Below, piece after piece: positions 1-54,370 of a stretch of DNA of 64,000 nt (positions are counted from its first letter, which is position 1; the number at the start of each line of letters is the position of its first letter). This stretch comes from Myxococcota bacterium. Its GTDB lineage: Bacteria > Myxococcota_A > UBA9160 > SZUA-336. Under the pieces are notes generated by a model. It was not told where the DNA came from. It saw only the letters and a program-made list of their open reading frames with translations, and searched no databases. The DNA is taken from positions 768,001 to 832,000 of the forward strand of contig CBDFGR010000003.1 in assembly GCA_965247115.1 (NCBI GenBank), written 5' to 3'. Both the position numbers and the translations under genes were made by a program.

Positions 1-801
1 TTCAAGCTCCTGTACCTGTTCGTGGATGGCGTCGCCGAGCGCCTGCACACCGGTCAGCGTCGCGAGATGGTGCTGTGTGCCTGGGGCATCACCGACGAGG
101 GCGAGAAGGTTCTCCTGCACCTGAGTCCGGGCACGAAGGAGGACACGGCGAGTTGCACGGCCTTCTTCCAGGACCTCAAACGTCGCGGCCTCGAGGATCC
201 GCTCCTCGTCGTCACGGATGGAGCCCCCGGTCTGATCCGCGCGGTCGAGGAGTGCTTTCCCCGGGCGGAGCGACAACGCTGTTTGGCCCATCGGATGCGC
301 AACCTCGCCTCCAAGATCTCCGAGCCCGACTGGCCGGAGTTTCGCGCCCACGCCAAGGCCTGTTACGAGGGACCCTCGCAAGAGGTCGCTCGTCTCCTGC
401 GCGACGACCTGGTCCGACGCTACGAGAAGACGTTACCTACGGCCGTGCAGTGCTTCATGGATGATTTTGAAGCCTGCATCGCCCACTTGCGCTTCCCGGT
501 AAAACACCGTCGCGTGATTCGGACGACGAACTTACTCGAGCGCCTCTTCCTCGAAGAGCGCCGTCGCATGAAGGCGGTCGTACACGCCTTCGGAGAGCGT
601 GCGGTCTTGAAGCTGATGTATGCTGCGTTGATCCGGAGCGCCGAGTCCTGGCGGGGCATCGCGATCAGCGCCTTTGAAGCCCGACAGCTCTCTGTGATTC
701 GGGAAGAGCTTGACCAGAACCACGAACGCCGTCAGGCTCCCGCCATCCCGTCACGCGAAGCCAATCCCCGGTCCCGCGTTTCCAGCAAGAACCGGACGTG
801 A
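1..801 (+). CDS. IS256-family (Mutator) DDE transposase, 5'-truncated by window edge
   Basis: Motifs YLFVDG, LKRRGL..PLLVVTDGAPGL, QRCLAHRMRN, IRTTNLLERLF.E.RRR. Confidence 0.93.
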   Translation, partial: FKLLYLFVDGVAERLHTGQRREMVLCAWGITDEGEKVLLHLSPGTKEDTASCTAFFQDLKRRGLEDPLLVVTDGAPGLIRAVEECFPRAERQRCLAHRMRNLASKISEPDWPEFRAHAKACYEGPSQEVARLLRDDLVRRYEKTLPTAVQCFMDDFEACIAHLRFPVKHRRVIRTTNLLERLFLEERRRMKAVVHAFGERAVLKLMYAALIRSAESWRGIAISAFEARQLSVIREELDQNHERRQAPAIPSREANPRSRVSSKNRT

Positions 802-803
802 CC
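1..803 (+). mobile_element. IS256-family insertion sequence, right portion (left end outside window)
   Basis: Transposase ORF runs to 801 and ends inside an IR-like terminus ...TTTCCAGCAAGAACCGGACGTGACC (ends 803), typical of IS256-family ends. Confidence 0.85.
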
Positions 804-813
804 CAGGCCAGTT

Positions 814-1423
814 CTACCAGCGTGCGGGTTTTGTGAGCGCGCGGCCTCCTGGTAGCACCAGTGGATCGGGGAACTGGTGCTGGAGATAGCGAGGGGACTT
901 AAGCTTGAACGTGTGTCCCGGGATCAGCTTTTGGAGTTCTTGGTTCTGTCTTGCGAAGGGGAATGCGAAGAAGATCGATTTCTCAGGATAGAGAGCTTGG
1001 GCAGTCCGCACGGCAGGGGCTAGATCCGTGTCGCCAGTCACCAGCACTGCGATATCACATTGGTCTGCATCGAAGATCTCAAGAAGCCTGCAGGCGATTG
1101 CTACATCGGTTTCCTTTTCTTCGTATGCAGGTCTTGAACTTGAACCGCCCAAGCTTGACACGCACACCCGTGGATTTGAGCGCTTCAATATATAGTTGGT
1201 GTCGAGCGGTCGAACCCGGTCGATAGTGGTCTCTGTGGTGAGCGAGCGCTGAGAAGTAGTAGATCCTCTCAAGGGTCGCAGTTCGTCCGATCACGGGGAG
1301 ACACGACTCGAGCAACGATCTGAGATTCAGCCACCGCGTGGATGGATGCTGAGGCAACCTCCGCTCGATCTCCTTGGCGGAGTGATAGACGTTGAAGCCG
1401 TCAACGAGGAAGACGGTCCGCAC
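814..1423 (-). pseudogene. NYN (LabA/DUF88, PIN-fold) RNase, frameshifted near 1125
   Basis: N-half VFLVDGFNVYH...IYYFSA...LGRFK (ORF 1079-1423) and C-half YEEKETDVAIA...VLVTGDTDLAPAV (ORF 814-1272) are in different frames at ACC TGC A TAC GAA. Confidence 0.85.
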
Positions 1424-1441
1424 GCTAGCCCCTTAAATCGA

Positions 1442-1500
1442 GAAACCCCCCAGGCCTTAGCCTGAGGGGGACCAGCGCGCCCGTAGGCCCGGCTGGGGAT
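1442..1500 (-). ncRNA. Putative structured leader/small RNA upstream of NYN gene (two hairpins)
   Basis: Minus strand: CCAGC..gcC-UACG-Ggc..GCTGG (UNCG tetraloop), then CCCCC(T)CAGGC-UAAG-GCCTGGGGGG followed by TTTCT. Confidence 0.45.
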
Positions 1501-1554
1501 GATGTATATTACTTATCGTCCCAACGCTGCGGAAGTCAAGTGGGGATTTCACCG

Positions 1555-1594
1555 AACTCTGCTAAACGGGTAGTCACCGTTTAGCAGAGTTTTA
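1555..1594. terminator. Strong hairpin, probable intrinsic terminator
   Basis: Perfect 15-bp inverted repeat AACTCTGCTAAACGG (1555-1569) / CCGTTTAGCAGAGTT (1577-1591) running into a short T tract; lies downstream of the tRNA-like gene. Confidence 0.65.
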
Positions 1595-1661
1595 AGCCCG
1601 TAACACGCGAAAAACTGGCGTATTGACGCCAGGGAACCGATAATACGGCCGAGTCTTAACC

Positions 1662-1752
1662 GGGTCCCCCGGGAGGGGGCTCGAACCCTCAAGACGCGGA
1701 TAGCGTCGCCCGGTTCCAGACCGGGTGCGTTTGCCAATTCCGCCACCGGGGG
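1662..1752 (-). tRNA. Class II (Leu-type body) tRNA-like gene, atypical anticodon loop TC-TGG-AA
   Basis: Acceptor CCCCCGG/CCGGGGG, D-arm TGGCGGAATTGGCAAACGC, anticodon stem CCCGG/CCGGG, long variable arm GACGC..GCGTC, T-arm GAGGG-TTCGAGCC-CCCTC, discriminator A, 3' CCC rather than CCA. Confidence 0.75.
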
Positions 1753-1884
1753 GTGTCCTAGGCGGATCCGGGGAACGGAGAAGTGGGTGGCCAACCTGAG
1801 CCTCTTCGCCCCCGGACCCTTGGGATCAGGGACGACTAGACGCCCCACGGCCCCTCGCCCGACCTGCTATGCTCAGGGCACCCC

Positions 1885-22643: not shown

Positions 22644-24599
22644 CTACCGGCGATCGAGGAAGCTGCTCGTGCTCTTGCGCCGCGTGCGCTTTCGATTCGG
22701 TCTAGGTGGGGTTGGCGCCGCGGCTGCTGGCACCTCGGCGTCGATCTCCACACCGAGGGCCTCGACTCGAGTCGCTTCCTTCTCGAGATCGAATCCCATC
22801 GTCTTCAGGCCCTCGAGCGCGGCCATCGCGTAGACCGAGAGGTCCAACGCTTCGTTGCGGCGGCCCGCGCTCTTCAGCTCCCAGGTGCGCGTCGGGAACC
22901 CAGACTTGTCCGTCCCAGGAACCGCCTTTTCTGCCGTGAGCTGCTGGAAGTACGCCTCGCCGAAGGCCTTCGGAAAGTGAATGTAGCCCGGGCCCGGCCG
23001 CTCGACTTTCTCCAGTCGCGCGTAGATCGCGTCTTTCGCGAGATCGACCTTCAGGGTATAGACCGGGATCTTGGCCTTGTTCTTGATGCTAGGAGCAATC
23101 GGCCAGAGATTCTTCCCGGGCCCGCCACTCCCCCGGATCGCAAACACGTACGCGCGCCGCCCGTCCGGTGTCGCGATGCGGTGCCGGGGACGGCAGAACT
23201 CGTACGCCCGCAACGTGTGATGTCCGCCCGTATCGACGCATGTGGCGCGAACGTAATCGACACCTCCGCGCTCGAGGCGCCTCGGCCGCGAGAGGAATTC
23301 CCAGAGATCATCCCAGACTTCGCCGCCCGAAGGATCGCCGTGCAAGACGTAATGCTCGAGCTTCCAGTTCTCCTCACCGCGTCCCCACGCTTCGACCTGC
23401 GCCTCGAGTCGATCGTCTTGCGTGTCGACGCTCGCCGTCATCACCACCGCGCCGCGCGGAACCACAGGGCGTCCTTCTCGCTCGGGGTAGGCCTCGCGGC
23501 GCGCGGCGATGTTCTCATCGTCGAGCGAGTCATACTTCGCTTCCCATGTCTCCCCGAGATCGGTGTTCACGAAGACCTGGAACTTGACCGGATCCTCTTT
23601 CGATCGGAGGAACCGCTTCGCGATTTTGCCCCACGCGGCATCCGGCGCCGGCGAGTACGCGGCCCAGATGTGGAAGCCCGCGTGTCCCTCGAAGGGCTTC
23701 TCCGCACGCCACTCTCCCTGTGCAACCATCGCCTCCTTCTCGGAATGCTCGATCTGCTCGTGGCAGTTCTCGCAGAGGTAGAAGGCCTCCTCGGGCGATC
23801 GACCATCCCATTTGATCCCGTAGTCGACGTCAGGGCCGCCCCACCGTAGCCGCTGTCCGTGATCACAATACGGGCACGGCACGAAGAAGTAACGCTGATC
23901 CGAGAACTCGAATGCAGTCTCCACCCGCGAGACCCCCGCGATCTTCGGCGAGCTTCCGATGATGTGCTTGTAGTCCCACGCCCAGGTCGTGCGCTTCTTC
24001 CCGAGCTCGATGGGATCGCCCTCACCACCCGCAGAGAGCGGGTAGGCGTCGACCTCATCAAACAGAACGATCCGCTTCGTGAGGCGCCGGAAGCCCCGAC
24101 CGCTATTCGCACCGACCATCGAGAGCACAGCACCACCAATGAAGTGCTTCTTCAGAATCGTGTTGCTCGAGTCCCGACTGCGCGGCGCCGCAATCAGCTC
24201 CTCGAGGACCTCGACGTCCCGGAGCATCGGCGCGAGCTCGTCCTTGCTGTATCCCTCGGCGTCCTCCACCGTCGGCTGCACGACCAGGATTCCGCACGGA
24301 TCATGCTGCGCGTAGTAGCCGATCGCGCAGTTCAGGATCTTCGTGTACCCAACCCTCGTCGACTTCTGGACCGTGACCTCTCGAACGTCCGGATCGGAGA
24401 TCGCGTCCATGATGCCTTTCTGGTAGGCAAGCGTTCTCCAGGTCCCCGCCTCGGCACTCGATTCGGCGGAGAGGATGTAGTTCTCGTCCGCCCACTCGCT
24501 GAGTGTCAGCTTCGGCGGCGGGGCAAAGCTCTGAAACGCTTCCCAGGCTGCGAGCTCAATCCCCTCGAGACGTGGGAACTCAAGCGCCGGTGAAGACAT
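22644..24599 (-). CDS. Terminase large subunit (GpA family)
   Basis: KSTRVGYT Walker A variant, VLFDEVD, CP.C zinc site, VDTQDDR, D.GG, RNEALD. Confidence 0.96.
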   Translation of the reverse strand: MSSPALEFPRLEGIELAAWEAFQSFAPPPKLTLSEWADENYILSAESSAEAGTWRTLAYQKGIMDAISDPDVREVTVQKSTRVGYTKILNCAIGYYAQHDPCGILVVQPTVEDAEGYSKDELAPMLRDVEVLEELIAAPRSRDSSNTILKKHFIGGAVLSMVGANSGRGFRRLTKRIVLFDEVDAYPLSAGGEGDPIELGKKRTTWAWDYKHIIGSSPKIAGVSRVETAFEFSDQRYFFVPCPYCDHGQRLRWGGPDVDYGIKWDGRSPEEAFYLCENCHEQIEHSEKEAMVAQGEWRAEKPFEGHAGFHIWAAYSPAPDAAWGKIAKRFLRSKEDPVKFQVFVNTDLGETWEAKYDSLDDENIAARREAYPEREGRPVVPRGAVVMTASVDTQDDRLEAQVEAWGRGEENWKLEHYVLHGDPSGGEVWDDLWEFLSRPRRLERGGVDYVRATCVDTGGHHTLRAYEFCRPRHRIATPDGRRAYVFAIRGSGGPGKNLWPIAPSIKNKAKIPVYTLKVDLAKDAIYARLEKVERPGPGYIHFPKAFGEAYFQQLTAEKAVPGTDKSGFPTRTWELKSAGRRNEALDLSVYAMAALEGLKTMGFDLEKEATRVEALGVEIDAEVPAAAAPTPPRPNRKRTRRKSTSSFLDRR

Positions 24600-25044
24600 C
24601 TCTCGCGAGCTCGGAGAGTGCCTCATCCACGATCGCGAGCATCGCCCTCTCGTCTCCCTGATTCAGCTTTCTCACGCGACGCCGCAGTTTCGATGGGAGC
24701 GCCCGCAGGCGATCCTTGCAGCGAAGAATCAGCTCCTGCCACCTCGCGACGACATCCTCATGTTGTAGGAGATGACCGCGTGTCTCCGCGTTCTTCAGGT
24801 CCTGCGCTTCCGCCTGGACCCGGGCTAGCTTCGCCCGCTCTCTGGATAGTTCGTCGGCGCCCTGTTCGGCGGGCTGGAAGATCAGCGGCAAGGCCTTCCG
24901 CGGGTCGTAGTAGATCGCCCGCTTCTCGCGCCTCACCGGCTCGATCTCGTGGAGCCGCTTGCGGACCGTTCGATGCGACGAGCCCGTGAGAAGAACCAGC
25001 TGCCCCATGGTCATCGCTGAGAGGCTGACCTCTGACCTCGCCAT
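24580..25044 (-). CDS. Terminase small subunit (Nu1-like)
   Basis: N-terminal wHTH-like, ERA.L...QA....LKN...RG.L coiled coil. Confidence 0.85.
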   Translation of the reverse strand: MARSEVSLSAMTMGQLVLLTGSSHRTVRKRLHEIEPVRREKRAIYYDPRKALPLIFQPAEQGADELSRERAKLARVQAEAQDLKNAETRGHLLQHEDVVARWQELILRCKDRLRALPSKLRRRVRKLNQGDERAMLAIVDEALSELARDVFTGA

Positions 25045-36291: not shown

Positions 36292-37257
36292 ATGCCCGCT
36301 CCCGCCCCTTCCCCTCTCGACCCGAGGCGTCCTCTCCCCGACCGTCTCGCCCAGCTGGACGCTCTGCACCTGGACAGGGGTGTCTCCTCGAGCTTCGACG
36401 AAGGCCACTGCGCGCTCGAGGTGGTCGCCTGGCTCGCAGGGGAGGAGCACAGCGACCATCCGCAGTGCACGAGTGCCGTGGTCGGAGACTTCGTCCGCTG
36501 CTGGAATGACAACCTTTTAGACGAGGATCGAGACCGTCTGCTCAAGCCCCTGCTCCCCCGCCTCGTGGGATCGGAAGGAGATCCCGACACGGAGCTCGCC
36601 CGCTCCTACCTAGCCCTCGACTGGCTCTGCCGGGTCCATACGCCCGCATGGCTGGATCTCGTGGAGAGTCTGAGCCCGCATGCCGCGAAGCTGCGCGGAC
36701 TCGGCGAGATCACGGACCTCGTTCGTGCAAGCGCGGCGCAGCCGATGATCCGTGCTGCGAGGGAAGCTGCGGGGGACGCTGTGAGGGACGCTGCGGAGGT
36801 CGCTGCGTGGATCGCTGCGAGGGAAGCTGCGGGGGACGCTGCGAGGGACGCTGCGAGGGAAGCTGCGAGGGACGCTGTGGGGGCCGCTGCGGGGGCCGCT
36901 GCGAGGGACGCTGCGAGGGACGCTGCGAGGGACGCTGTGGGGGCCGCTGCGAGGGACGCTGCGAGGGACGCTGCGAGGGACGCTGTGGGGGCCGCTGCGG
37001 GGGCCGCTGCGAGGGACGCTGCGTGGGACGCTGTGGGGGCCGCTGCGGGGGCCGCTGCGAGGGACGCTGCGAGGGACGCTGCGGGGGACGCTGCGGGGGA
37101 CGCTGCGAGGGTCGCTGCGGGAGCCGCGGCGGGGGCCGATGCGAGGGTCACCGCGTGGGACGCTGCGAGTGCCGCGCTCGAGCCGACCGTGCTCACGCTC
37201 CAGGATTCGGCACGCGATCTCGTTTGTCGAATGCTCGCGGTGGGGGAGTCCGCATGA
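36292..37257 (+). CDS. Phage protein with C-terminal AA(R/G/W)D tetrapeptide repeats
   Basis: CALE..AWLAGE.HSDHP.C....F.R.WND domain; AGGAG RBS. Confidence 0.85.
   Translation: MPAPAPSPLDPRRPLPDRLAQLDALHLDRGVSSSFDEGHCALEVVAWLAGEEHSDHPQCTSAVVGDFVRCWNDNLLDEDRDRLLKPLLPRLVGSEGDPDTELARSYLALDWLCRVHTPAWLDLVESLSPHAAKLRGLGEITDLVRASAAQPMIRAAREAAGDAVRDAAEVAAWIAAREAAGDAARDAAREAARDAVGAAAGAAARDAARDAARDAVGAAARDAARDAARDAVGAAAGAAARDAAWDAVGAAAGAAARDAARDAAGDAAGDAARVAAGAAAGADARVTAWDAASAALEPTVLTLQDSARDLVCRMLAVGESA
36314..36721 (+). repeat. ~410-bp direct repeat, copy 2
   Basis: See copy 1. Confidence 0.95.
36753..37170 (+). repeat. 12-bp tandem repeat array (consensus GCTGCGAGGGAC)
   Basis: Roughly 30+ degenerate units encoding AARD/AAGA/AVGA/AAWD. 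Confidence 0.95.
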
Positions 37258-40136: not shown

Positions 40137-41351
40137 ATGACTTCATCTGTCCTCAGCCTTCGCCGCGAATTCACTACCCGCGCCCTGCTCGGACAGGGTA
40201 TACGGGTAGAGATGGCGCGCGATCTGTTCAATGTCCGACAACGCAAGGACTCGGGAGCTTGGTACGTCGATTGCCGGCCCTACGGGCGCATCCAGTGGAT
40301 CATGGTCGAGGAAGTCGGGAAGAAGCCTCTAGACGAGCAGATGGCCCACATGCTGCTTGCCTGGATCAGGGCAGAGATCGCGGGCGGAAAGTCTCCGAAA
40401 GAGGCTGTAGACCCCTATCTCCCGCGCCCGACAGCCCTCGTCCGAGATCGCCTGCCGGCCTGGCTTGAGATGATGAGCGACCAGGTCGAACGGGGGGATC
40501 GTAGCCCCACCTACCTGCGCGAGCTCGTGCGCTACGCGAAGCCGAGCGGCCACTTCTCGCCACTCTTCGAGGTCTCGACCTACGGGATCTCCTACGGCCT
40601 CATCGAGGACTGGACCAAGATCCTGGCCGATCGAGGCTTGGGGCAAAAGACCAGAACGAACGTCGTCGGTGCCTTCCATTCCTTCCTTGGCTGGCTGGTC
40701 AGTCGCGAGGAGATCTCAGCGGTCCCGAAGTTTCCGCCGCAGCCCAAGACCGTCCATCGCCCTCATATCATCCCGCCCGACGTACAGGACGCGATACTCA
40801 AGGAGATCCCCGAGCAAAAGCGCGGGGCCTTCATAACGTCTGTCGAACTCCTCCTCCGGCCTGGTGAGGTTCGCGCGCTCAACGTCGAGAACTACGACCG
40901 CCGAACCAGGGTCCTGTGCGTCGCCCACGCGATGAAAGGCCCCCGCAGAGACGCGCCTCGCAGGGAGACGAAGGAGGGCGACATCCGCTACCGCGAAGCC
41001 TCAGATCGCCTCCATGCTTGGATCGAGCGGTACGTGCCACTCCTGGCCGTCTACGAGGGCGAACGGCCGCTCTTCGCGAACCCGGATGCCAAGGCCGCGC
41101 TCAATCCCAGCAAGCGCTGGACACATGATCCGCTTCGAACGAACTGGAACGAAGCAGCGACACGAGCGGGGCATCCTGGCGTGCAACTCTACGAGGGCAC
41201 GAAGCACTCGACCGCGACTGCGCTGCGTCGCGCTGGTGTTCCACTCGATGTGATCCAGGCCGCTGCCGGACACAAAGACGTGCGCTCGACCGAGCGCTAC
41301 GCGCAGTTAGCCGACGATGTAGTCGCCGACGCCCTCAGGAAACGACGGTGA
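40137..41351 (+). CDS. Tyrosine integrase
   Basis: LRPGEVRAL, TK, YEGTKHS.AT, AGH.D...T.RYA; start may be ~40212. Confidence 0.93.
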   Translation: MTSSVLSLRREFTTRALLGQGIRVEMARDLFNVRQRKDSGAWYVDCRPYGRIQWIMVEEVGKKPLDEQMAHMLLAWIRAEIAGGKSPKEAVDPYLPRPTALVRDRLPAWLEMMSDQVERGDRSPTYLRELVRYAKPSGHFSPLFEVSTYGISYGLIEDWTKILADRGLGQKTRTNVVGAFHSFLGWLVSREEISAVPKFPPQPKTVHRPHIIPPDVQDAILKEIPEQKRGAFITSVELLLRPGEVRALNVENYDRRTRVLCVAHAMKGPRRDAPRRETKEGDIRYREASDRLHAWIERYVPLLAVYEGERPLFANPDAKAALNPSKRWTHDPLRTNWNEAATRAGHPGVQLYEGTKHSTATALRRAGVPLDVIQAAAGHKDVRSTERYAQLADDVVADALRKRR

Positions 41352-41428: not shown

Positions 41429-41456
41429 GGGGTTCGATTCCCGTGCGCTTCCGCCA
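41429..41456 (+). other. attR core: duplicated 3' end of tRNA-Sec (selC)
   Basis: GGGGTTCGATTCCCGTGCGCTTCCGCCA = T-arm plus the TTCCGCCA end characteristic of tRNA-Sec; no 5' half upstream. Confidence 0.85.
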
Positions 41457-54283: not shown

Positions 54284-54370
54284 TGGTGCCGGAGGTGGGA
54301 CTCGAACCCACAAGGGAATACTCCCGCGCGATTTTGAGTCGCGTGCGTATACCAATTCCGCCACTCCGGC
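54284..54370 (-). tRNA. tRNA-Leu(CAA)
   Basis: GCCGGAGTGGCGGAATTGGTATACGCA CGCGA CT-CAA-AA TCGCG ... GTGGGTTCGAGTCCCAC CTCCGGC A CCA. Confidence 0.97.

Follow-up and report, generated by a model that had tools for sequence, protein, structure and literature searches.

Known natural tRNAs of dual identity include the allo-tRNAs, irregular tRNAs of bacteria and phages in which anticodon and identity disagree and some of which are inactive (Mukai et al. 2017, PMC5389517), and tRNAProX (PMC10404621); it has also been proposed that changes in the anticodon loop allow phage tRNAs to evade tRNA nucleases of the host (van den Berg et al. 2023, PMC10264068). We describe a candidate tRNA gene on the minus strand of a 64,000-nt stretch of the genome (G000) of a Myxococcota bacterium (contig CBDFGR010000003.1, positions 768,001 to 832,000; hereafter the window). 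An initial annotation of the window had proposed a structure-preserved tRNA shape with a Leu-type core and a Pro anticodon, and this proposal is borne out: judging from sequence and predicted fold, the candidate is a real, structure-preserved hybrid tRNA gene carried on a small mobile module. We posit, with a probability of roughly 35%, that this intact class-II tRNA serves as an extra reader of CCN codons and is charged mainly with proline. The gene and its parts are as follows.

1665..1752, minus strand: class-II tRNA gene, 88 nt in the window copy, supported by ARAGORN, Rfam, a minimum-energy cloverleaf and covariance model R1 (114.6 bits)
1709..1725, minus strand: anticodon arm CCCGG-TCTGGAA-CCGGG, an exact 17-nt match to the arm of phage class-I tRNA-Pro(UGG) genes (loci L125 and L129)
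1691..1708, minus strand: long variable arm with flanking bases, predicted by folding to form a 5-bp stem (GACGC/GCGTC) and a 5-nt loop
1673..1690, minus strand: T-arm GAGGG / TTCGAGCC / CCCTC, with 5/5 pairs in the T-stem and a run of five C (1679-1675), defined by comparison of the gene copies

All of the details listed in the annotation (paired stems, a Leu-type D-arm, a long variable arm, A73, C33, an 8-nt T-loop and no encoded CCA) are present in the window copy, and ARAGORN, a check it had suggested, calls the gene tRNA-Pro(tgg). The program finds two tRNA genes in the window, the 90-nt tRNA-Pro(tgg) at 1663..1752 and a tRNA-Leu(caa) at 54284..54370, both on the minus strand. Rfam model RF00005 matches the candidate at 1666..1752 with 35.3 bits (gathering threshold 29, E 1.4e-5) in a scan of positions 1300-2100 (801 nt); a gathering scan of the whole window lists the tRNA-Leu gene alone, the candidate being lost to the speed filters. 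On the minus strand, C1 lies at 1752, C33 at 1719, the anticodon TGG at 1718-1716 and A73 at 1665. The acceptor stem consists of 7/7 pairs (1746-1752 with 1666-1672), all G-C, the D-stem of 3 bp closing a D-loop of Leu type, and the anticodon stem of 5/5 pairs (1721-1725 with 1709-1713); the minimum-energy fold is a cloverleaf, and both sequence and fold conform to the canonical 7/5 arrangement of tRNA. Conserved tertiary bases are present (U8, A14, G18G19, A21, the TTC of T54-Psi55-C56, A58 and C61) with the exception of U33: the anticodon loop reads T-C-TGG-A-A (1720-1714), with C at 1719 and at the same place in both gene copies. U33 is, to our knowledge, near-universal in tRNAs. Folding energy alone is not distinctive, with z -1.61 for the candidate, which 12 of 200 shuffles match, and z -2.47 for the host tRNA-Leu. 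A73 is followed by C-C-C, such that CC is encoded and the final A of CCA is not. CCA is encoded in 46 of the 52 tRNA genes called by ARAGORN in the host genome, and the sole host tRNA-Leu(TAG) ends ACC|G, as the candidate does. Because this sole tRNA-Leu(TAG) lacks an encoded CCA, the host cell must be able to complete CCA ends, and the missing CCA is in principle not disabling.

The 52 tRNA genes found by ARAGORN in the whole genome, in addition to one tmRNA gene, include a second copy of the candidate at C2:1627871-1627959, identical to the first except for four C instead of five in the T-arm. Its T-arm is canonical (GAGGG/TTCGAGC/CCCTC, 7-nt loop), its 25 pairs are all intact and it carries every conserved tertiary base save U33. 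The 8-nt T-loop of the initial annotation is thus found in the window copy, where it arises only when the T-stem is kept fully paired, but it reflects a one-base insertion private to that copy. Assemblies from four runs of one sample contain both lengths of the C-run, five in X1, X2 and X3 and four in X4. The X4 contig bears the C2-type flank, and a piece of X3 joins five C to the C2-type base at 1782. Because both lengths occur in independent contigs, we conclude that the length of the C-run varies in the population and is no artefact of this assembly.

The body of the candidate is that of a tRNA-Leu. Its D-arm region matches the host tRNA-Leu(CAA) (54287-54370) at 17/19 positions, the two genes share A73, the long variable arm and the T-loop sequence, and the closest host tRNAs are Leu tRNAs, with 66-70% identity. 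The features of bacterial tRNA-Leu are present (A73, A15 with U48, G18G19, A20a and a class-II arm), apart from a Leu anticodon (NAG or NAA), in place of which the candidate has TGG. It further differs from tRNA-Leu(CAA) in C1:G72 rather than G1:C72, in C33 and in at least five stem pairs that are changed on both sides. When a covariance model derived from the C2 copy (R1) is run against 32 family genomes, it scores the two copies at 120.5 and 114.6 bits, followed by tRNA-Leu(CAA) at 72.5 bits. In an alignment of 14 rows to R1, comprising the two copies, the host tRNA-Leu(CAA) and the 11 best matches from relatives, and leaning towards the structure of the model, 99.3% of cells pair and 15 of the 25 pairs show two-sided changes, a result reached by none of 500 shuffles; sliding the pair partners lowers pairing to 39-61%. 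Pairs seen in the candidate alone are C-G at 1:72, at 5:68 and as the second pair of the anticodon stem, and G-C as the last pair of that stem. Because all 25 pairs have been kept through compensatory changes, plain decay from a tRNA-Leu is argued against. The suggestion of a decaying tRNA-Leu(TAG) in the initial annotation fits poorly with these two-sided changes and with an anticodon arm that is the arm of phage tRNA-Pro. Closer kinship to the C1-type Leu tRNAs of phages was also considered and not seen, their scores being 62-67 bits compared with 72.5 for the host tRNA-Leu(CAA).

In contrast to the body, the anticodon arm matches tRNA-Pro(UGG) genes of phages. The exact 17-mer CCCGGTCTGGAACCGGG occurs five times in viral contigs. 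Two of the occurrences lie in class-I tRNA-Pro(UGG) genes within tRNA clusters, both with C1:G72 and A73; the remaining three contain no tRNA by ARAGORN and look like chance matches. A pattern combining a class-I D-arm with the loop TCTGGAA matches 17 viral loci, of which seven are without a tRNA and 10 are tRNA genes representing five distinct sequences with three different anticodon stems; ARAGORN assigns Pro-tgg to nine of these genes and leaves one unassigned. These class-I genes (IMG/VR contigs behind L125/L133, L129/L145, L131, L132 and L139) share U32, C33, A37 and A38 with the candidate and are identical to it over 17/17 arm positions in two cases. C1:G72 is found in 4/5 of the distinct sequences (L139 starts with A), and A73 likewise in 4/5 (L132 has G at 73). 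They differ from the candidate in having a short variable loop and a TAGCTCAG-type class-I D-arm, in place of a Leu-type D-arm and a 5-bp variable arm. In the 340-kb jumbo-phage contig behind L129, C33 and A37 occur in Pro(tgg) only, Pro(cgg) and Pro(ggg) being ordinary with T33. The analysis also covered seven tRNA-Pro genes of cultured phages, a non-random sample taken from the top rows of 355 and 974 matching records; the six tRNA-Pro(UGG) genes among them have A37 rather than G37 in five cases and T33 in all six. The host's own tRNA-Pro(UGG) has the loop TTTGGGA. Based on these sequences, U32, A37 and A38 constitute a common loop of phage tRNA-Pro(UGG), and C33 is a recurrent minority form. 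This recurrence makes plausible one idea of the initial annotation, that the loop is resistant to an anticodon nuclease. The cultured phages behind L284-L289 are LP-064, phi36, XacN1, Arash, Xanthomonas X1 and Vibrio VPp1, and in several Listeria phage records the tRNA-Pro(UGG) gene is annotated as 'tRNA-OTHER'. A literature search, which did not extend to the supplements of the cited papers, found no paper on the UCUGGAA loop, on phage tRNA-Pro with C33 or on a long-arm tRNA-Pro.

The amino acid that such a tRNA would carry was judged from its identity marks. In Escherichia coli, the strong determinants of Pro identity are G72/C1-G72, A73, G35 and G36, with further contributions from G15:C48 and G37 (PMC9976931). 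The candidate has C1:G72, A73, G35 and G36. Leaving aside the two candidate copies, the only host tRNAs that begin with C1 are the three Pro tRNAs and an 85-nt duplicate of Ser(cga), and the prolyl-tRNA synthetase (ProRS) of the host belongs to the bacterial type (TIGR00409, 569 bits). Charging with Pro is favored because both ends read by ProRS carry Pro marks, because the anticodon arm comes from Pro tRNAs and because Leu in place of Pro would be costly, Pro codons making up about 6% of all codons. In the mechanism that we propose, a core of tRNA-Leu type is combined with the marks that phage Pro tRNAs carry at the acceptor end and with an anticodon arm identical to theirs; the gene would be transcribed and its RNA processed and given a CCA end; ProRS rather than leucyl-tRNA synthetase (LeuRS) would win the charging; and the C33/A37 loop would be a phage adaptation, for example one that evades a tRNA nuclease specific for the loop or makes methylation of G37 unnecessary.

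The candidate forms part of a repeated module at one end of a prophage, with the following features.

804..1846, minus strand: 1,043-bp repeated module composed of a 94-nt leader, the tRNA gene, a terminator and an NYN gene, delimited by blastn within the genome
1610..1632, minus strand (the strand of the tRNA): terminator-like hairpin CTGGCGTCAATACGCCAG at 1632..1615, followed by TTTTT, approximately 30 nt past the tRNA 3' end, by consensus match only
814..1423, minus strand: NYN-domain RNase gene (Pfam NYN) of the PADLOC HEC-09 type, frameshifted, with open reading frames at 1079-1423 and 814-1272
1..801, plus strand: IS256/Mutator-family transposase gene (Pfam PF00872, E 5.5e-44), cut by the start of the window and abutting the end of the module

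The module is 98-100% identical to C2:1625827-1628053, where it is split by an insertion sequence (IS) of the IS1595 family located between the NYN and tRNA genes. The NYN end is present a third time, in part, at C2:767512-767833, in an island downstream of tRNA-Sec that also encodes HicB, a methylase-endonuclease fusion, RadC and an IS256 element. The module thus has three locations in the genome, with IS elements as neighbors. In the window, the NYN frame is shifted by a 32-nt deletion near 1135, as seen in the alignment of the copies; the C2 gene is intact and its 213-aa product matches the HEC-09 profile with E 4.3e-43 over residues 2-213 of 213. The acidic residues D8, D117, D134, D142 and D144 are invariant in 17 NYN homologues. 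The full-length match and the acidic residues place the C2 copy in the HEC-09 family, of which the window copy is a frameshifted version. The initial annotation spoke of an RNase cassette: an NYN RNase gene does adjoin the tRNA gene, but it is a single gene, and it is broken in the window. The terminator consensus scan yields three sites compared with 1.1 expected in shuffles. The 804-806-bp IS256 segment (window 1-804) has four further copies in the genome. In the C2 copy (L004, 8722-9726), the IS1595/ISXO2-type element is inserted at the hairpin equivalent to window position ~1592, and 38 nt of that hairpin are repeated in inverted orientation next to the element.

The window contains a lambda-like prophage, with a terminase gene at 22644-24626, after which genes for portal, capsid, tape measure and J proteins and for fibres extend as far as 4573; its replication genes are located near 30-31 kb and its integrase gene at 40137-41351. 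The module lies between the last phage-like genes and the IS256 copy, at the tail-fibre end of the prophage, and the candidate is co-oriented with the late genes. The only attachment-site remnant identified lies beside the integrase gene, at 41430-41456, where 27 nt exactly repeat the 3' end of tRNA-Sec, whose true gene is at C2:761830-761928; no partner of this repeat was found at the tail-fibre end, and a remnant without partner suggests a rearranged prophage. The C2 copy of the module is located among housekeeping genes (those for PBP1A, an amine oxidase, ThyA and DHFR). In G002, a genome of the same genus, the amine-oxidase gene directly adjoins the gene beyond the G000 insertion with no tRNA between, and because these flanking genes are adjacent we regard the C2 segment as a 3.1-kb insertion. 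No tRNA was found at the C2-equivalent place in the four relatives' loci that were fetched, synteny being looser in the three from family-level genomes. We therefore rejected a mutated ancestral chromosomal tRNA, for example the missing tRNA-Leu(UAA), given that the site is without a tRNA in G002 and in the three family-level loci; an attachment-site duplicate of tRNA-Leu(CAA) was rejected because the two genes have only 22 nt of the D-arm in common, at 91% identity. The module is mobile cargo, being neither an ancestral tRNA locus nor clearly part of the phage genome, and its occurrence in a chromosomal insertion that is not a prophage makes the term phage tRNA used in the initial annotation doubtful.

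Other features of the genome are noted here for completeness. ARAGORN did not find a tRNA-Leu(UAA) in G000, where TTA amounts to ~0.41 per 1000 codons in long open reading frames. Two extra, partly truncated copies of tRNA-Ser(cga) are present (C3:688608-688692 and C3:2401143-2401229; full gene at C3:2329734) and are probably attachment-site duplicates of integrated elements. Window positions 36754-37175 consist of an internal array of short-period repeats, which aligns with itself in many registers and also matches arrays at C3:1214568-1215383 and at several other loci of the genome.

A number of observations weigh against an extra, Pro-charged reader of CCN codons. The candidate carries the whole set of E. 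coli-type Leu identity elements (A73, A15 with U before the T-stem, G18G19 and A20a), and because of this LeuRS may charge it. The G37, the G15:C48 Levitt pair and the class-I body of tRNA-Pro are absent, the candidate having A37, A15 and a long variable arm, and we know of no precedent for a long variable arm on a substrate of ProRS. C1:G72 is also found in ordinary Leu tRNAs of phage-like tRNA arrays and is thus no proof of Pro identity. The share of CCA and CCT differs little between prophage (33%) and host (27%), and codon compensation, which we had considered, is accordingly weak. C33 occurs in no other real host tRNA, all of the rest having T33; a promoter scan found no promoter-like sites in 700-2400; and the window copy is the more degraded of the two, with an extra T-loop base and a broken NYN neighbor. 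The candidate is so far known from one genome: beyond G000, relatives of the gene as a whole were not detected by blastn of the tRNA with its flanks against 61 relatives, in which the match in G021 extends over 35 nt of the query, or in the 32 family genomes (R1), 151 phylum genomes and phage and plasmid collections.

Pattern scans gave a similar picture. A Leu D-arm combined with the TCTGGAA loop has no matches in viral sequences, and neither has the pattern of T-arm and acceptor; scans with the 5' half recover 22 metagenome loci and one viral locus, all with other anticodons. A looser viral pattern yields, among the matches listed (80 loci fetched), mostly coding sequence and one Leu-bodied UGG tRNA (L197). 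Further tRNA-like genes with a Leu-type D-arm and non-Leu anticodons were observed at L113 (2442-2526, minus strand), L111, L102 and L107, that at L113 having C1:G72, A73 and the anticodon UGA in a regular 7-nt loop, and ordinary tRNA-Leu genes with A73 and with C1:G72 in place of G1:C72 were observed where metagenome and viral contigs carry dense arrays of tRNA genes (L093, L095, L098, L106, L114 and L115).

The absence of relatives from the collections searched, the C33, the unencoded CCA and the lack of promoter-like sites would also be accounted for if the candidate were dead or dying, that is, a once-functional tRNA gene of a mobile element that has hitch-hiked with the IS-mediated duplication of the NYN module. 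The T-loop insertion next to a frameshifted NYN gene in the window, and the IS1595 insertion that parts the C2 copy of the tRNA gene from its NYN gene, are likewise consistent with a relic. This explanation is possible but we consider it doubtful, given that the C2 copy retains its full set of pairs and all conserved tertiary bases save U33, that the divergence from Leu tRNAs is fully compensated and that the odd loop is no random lesion, being recurrent in phage tRNA-Pro.

A second alternative, which the initial annotation had put forward and which we judge to be rather unlikely, is a missense tRNA: LeuRS would charge the candidate via its Leu core and A73, and Leu would be inserted at CCN codons, making the gene a mistranslation device borne by a mobile element. 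The likeness of the D-arm, the class-II arm, the identity to host Leu tRNAs and the best non-self matches to R1 (72.5 bits) are all in keeping with this view, as is the second Leu-bodied UGG tRNA in viral contig L197, which has G1:C72 and A73. That LeuRS is indifferent to the anticodon, as the annotation had stated, is documented for E. coli, where A73 and the tertiary core (A15-U48, G18G19, A20a) define Leu identity (PMC9976931), and the allo-tRNAs and tRNAProX provide natural examples of dual identity. The Leu core and this indifference stand; what the initial annotation had missed is C1:G72, which with A73, G35 and G36 makes up the main set of bacterial ProRS marks. As its first pair the candidate has the inverted C1:G72 of host Pro tRNAs, the anticodon arm is that of phage tRNA-Pro, constitutive replacement of Pro by Leu would be costly, and no dedicated regulator or synthetase adjoins the gene. 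Based on these marks, we regard a Pro-charged, non-missense tRNA as at least as likely as a Pro-to-Leu one; the margin of Pro over Leu is small, and LeuRS, or the two enzymes together, may plausibly do the charging.

It is unlikely, in our view, that the candidate is a tRNA-shaped RNA without a role in translation, whether it would lure an anticodon nuclease as decoy or bait or would serve the NYN RNase as its RNA partner or antidote. The tRNA and NYN genes were duplicated together as one module, and C33 is expected to weaken use by the ribosome. Irregular tRNAs have been reported near toxin-antitoxin genes and transposons (PMC5389517), and the NYN protein is a predicted RNase and a candidate defense gene; however, HEC-09, described in the paper that defined it as a MARF1-like NYN RNase, did not protect against the phages used there (bioRxiv 10.1101/2024.01.29.577857). 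A terminator-like hairpin also separates the two genes. Moreover, among 80 loci with NYN homologues of 41-58% identity, none has a related tRNA-like gene: ARAGORN finds tRNAs in 10, all ordinary, and R1 gives five matches, all unrelated to the candidate. The two closest NYN homologues (75-76% identity) fall outside these 80 loci, and across the NYN family in the 41-58% range we rejected a conserved pairing of tRNA and NYN genes. In seven of the 80 loci (L018, L019, L031, L036, L049, L065 and L067), the NYN gene is followed by an ordinary tRNA gene on the opposite strand, at a distance of ~60-300 nt in six and ~900 nt in L018; tRNA genes downstream of NYN loci are the pattern expected for cargo at the edge of tRNA-integrated islands. 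A two-part device, in which the NYN protein would cut the loop of ordinary tRNA-Pro(UGG) and the hybrid C33/A37 tRNA would be a cut-proof replacement sustaining CCN decoding for its carrier, strikes us as highly improbable.

Returning to a Pro-charged extra reader of CCN codons, its significance would depend on charging. If the RNA is made and charged, the candidate would be a natural tRNA that carries the body of one class and the decoding end of another on mobile DNA; if it is charged with Pro, ProRS would be able to accept a long-arm tRNA and tRNA bodies would be swapped in nature, and if with Leu, the gene would be a transferable source of Pro-to-Leu mistranslation. The recurrence of the C33/A37 loop specifically in phage tRNA-Pro(UGG) is a lead to a host nuclease or modification acting on the anticodon loop of tRNA-Pro.

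With allo-tRNAs, the candidate shares a setting near nuclease or toxin genes and transposons, and it differs from them in geometry and identity: allo-tRNAs have an acceptor/T branch of 8/4 or 9/3 and mostly Ser identity (PMC5389517), whereas the candidate has 7/5 and A73. The 12-bp branch cannot be split as in allo-tRNAs, since the bases next to the acceptor stem, U8 and the last base of the T-stem (C), cannot extend it. tRNAProX, which is found with ProRSx in Streptomyces and Kitasatospora, likewise combines one identity with the anticodon of another, but it has a Pro body, Asn or Thr anticodons and a special ProRS encoded adjacently (PMC10404621), in contrast to the Leu body, the Pro anticodon and the absence of an adjoining synthetase in our case. 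As in the phage tRNAs proposed to evade nucleases, the loop of the candidate differs from that of the host isoacceptor; that proposal concerns tRNAs with ordinary bodies and named nucleases, and the available portion of the paper discusses neither C33 nor tRNA-Pro (PMC10264068). The Leu-bodied UGG tRNA of L197 resembles the candidate in its GGCGGAATTGG-type D-arm, long variable arm, A73, UGG anticodon, A37 and A38, and differs in G1:C72, U33, a mismatch at the foot of the acceptor stem and a score of 55.3 bits against R1, which indicates that it is no close relative. We conclude that the candidate belongs with the irregular or dual-identity tRNAs of mobile elements, as a variant.

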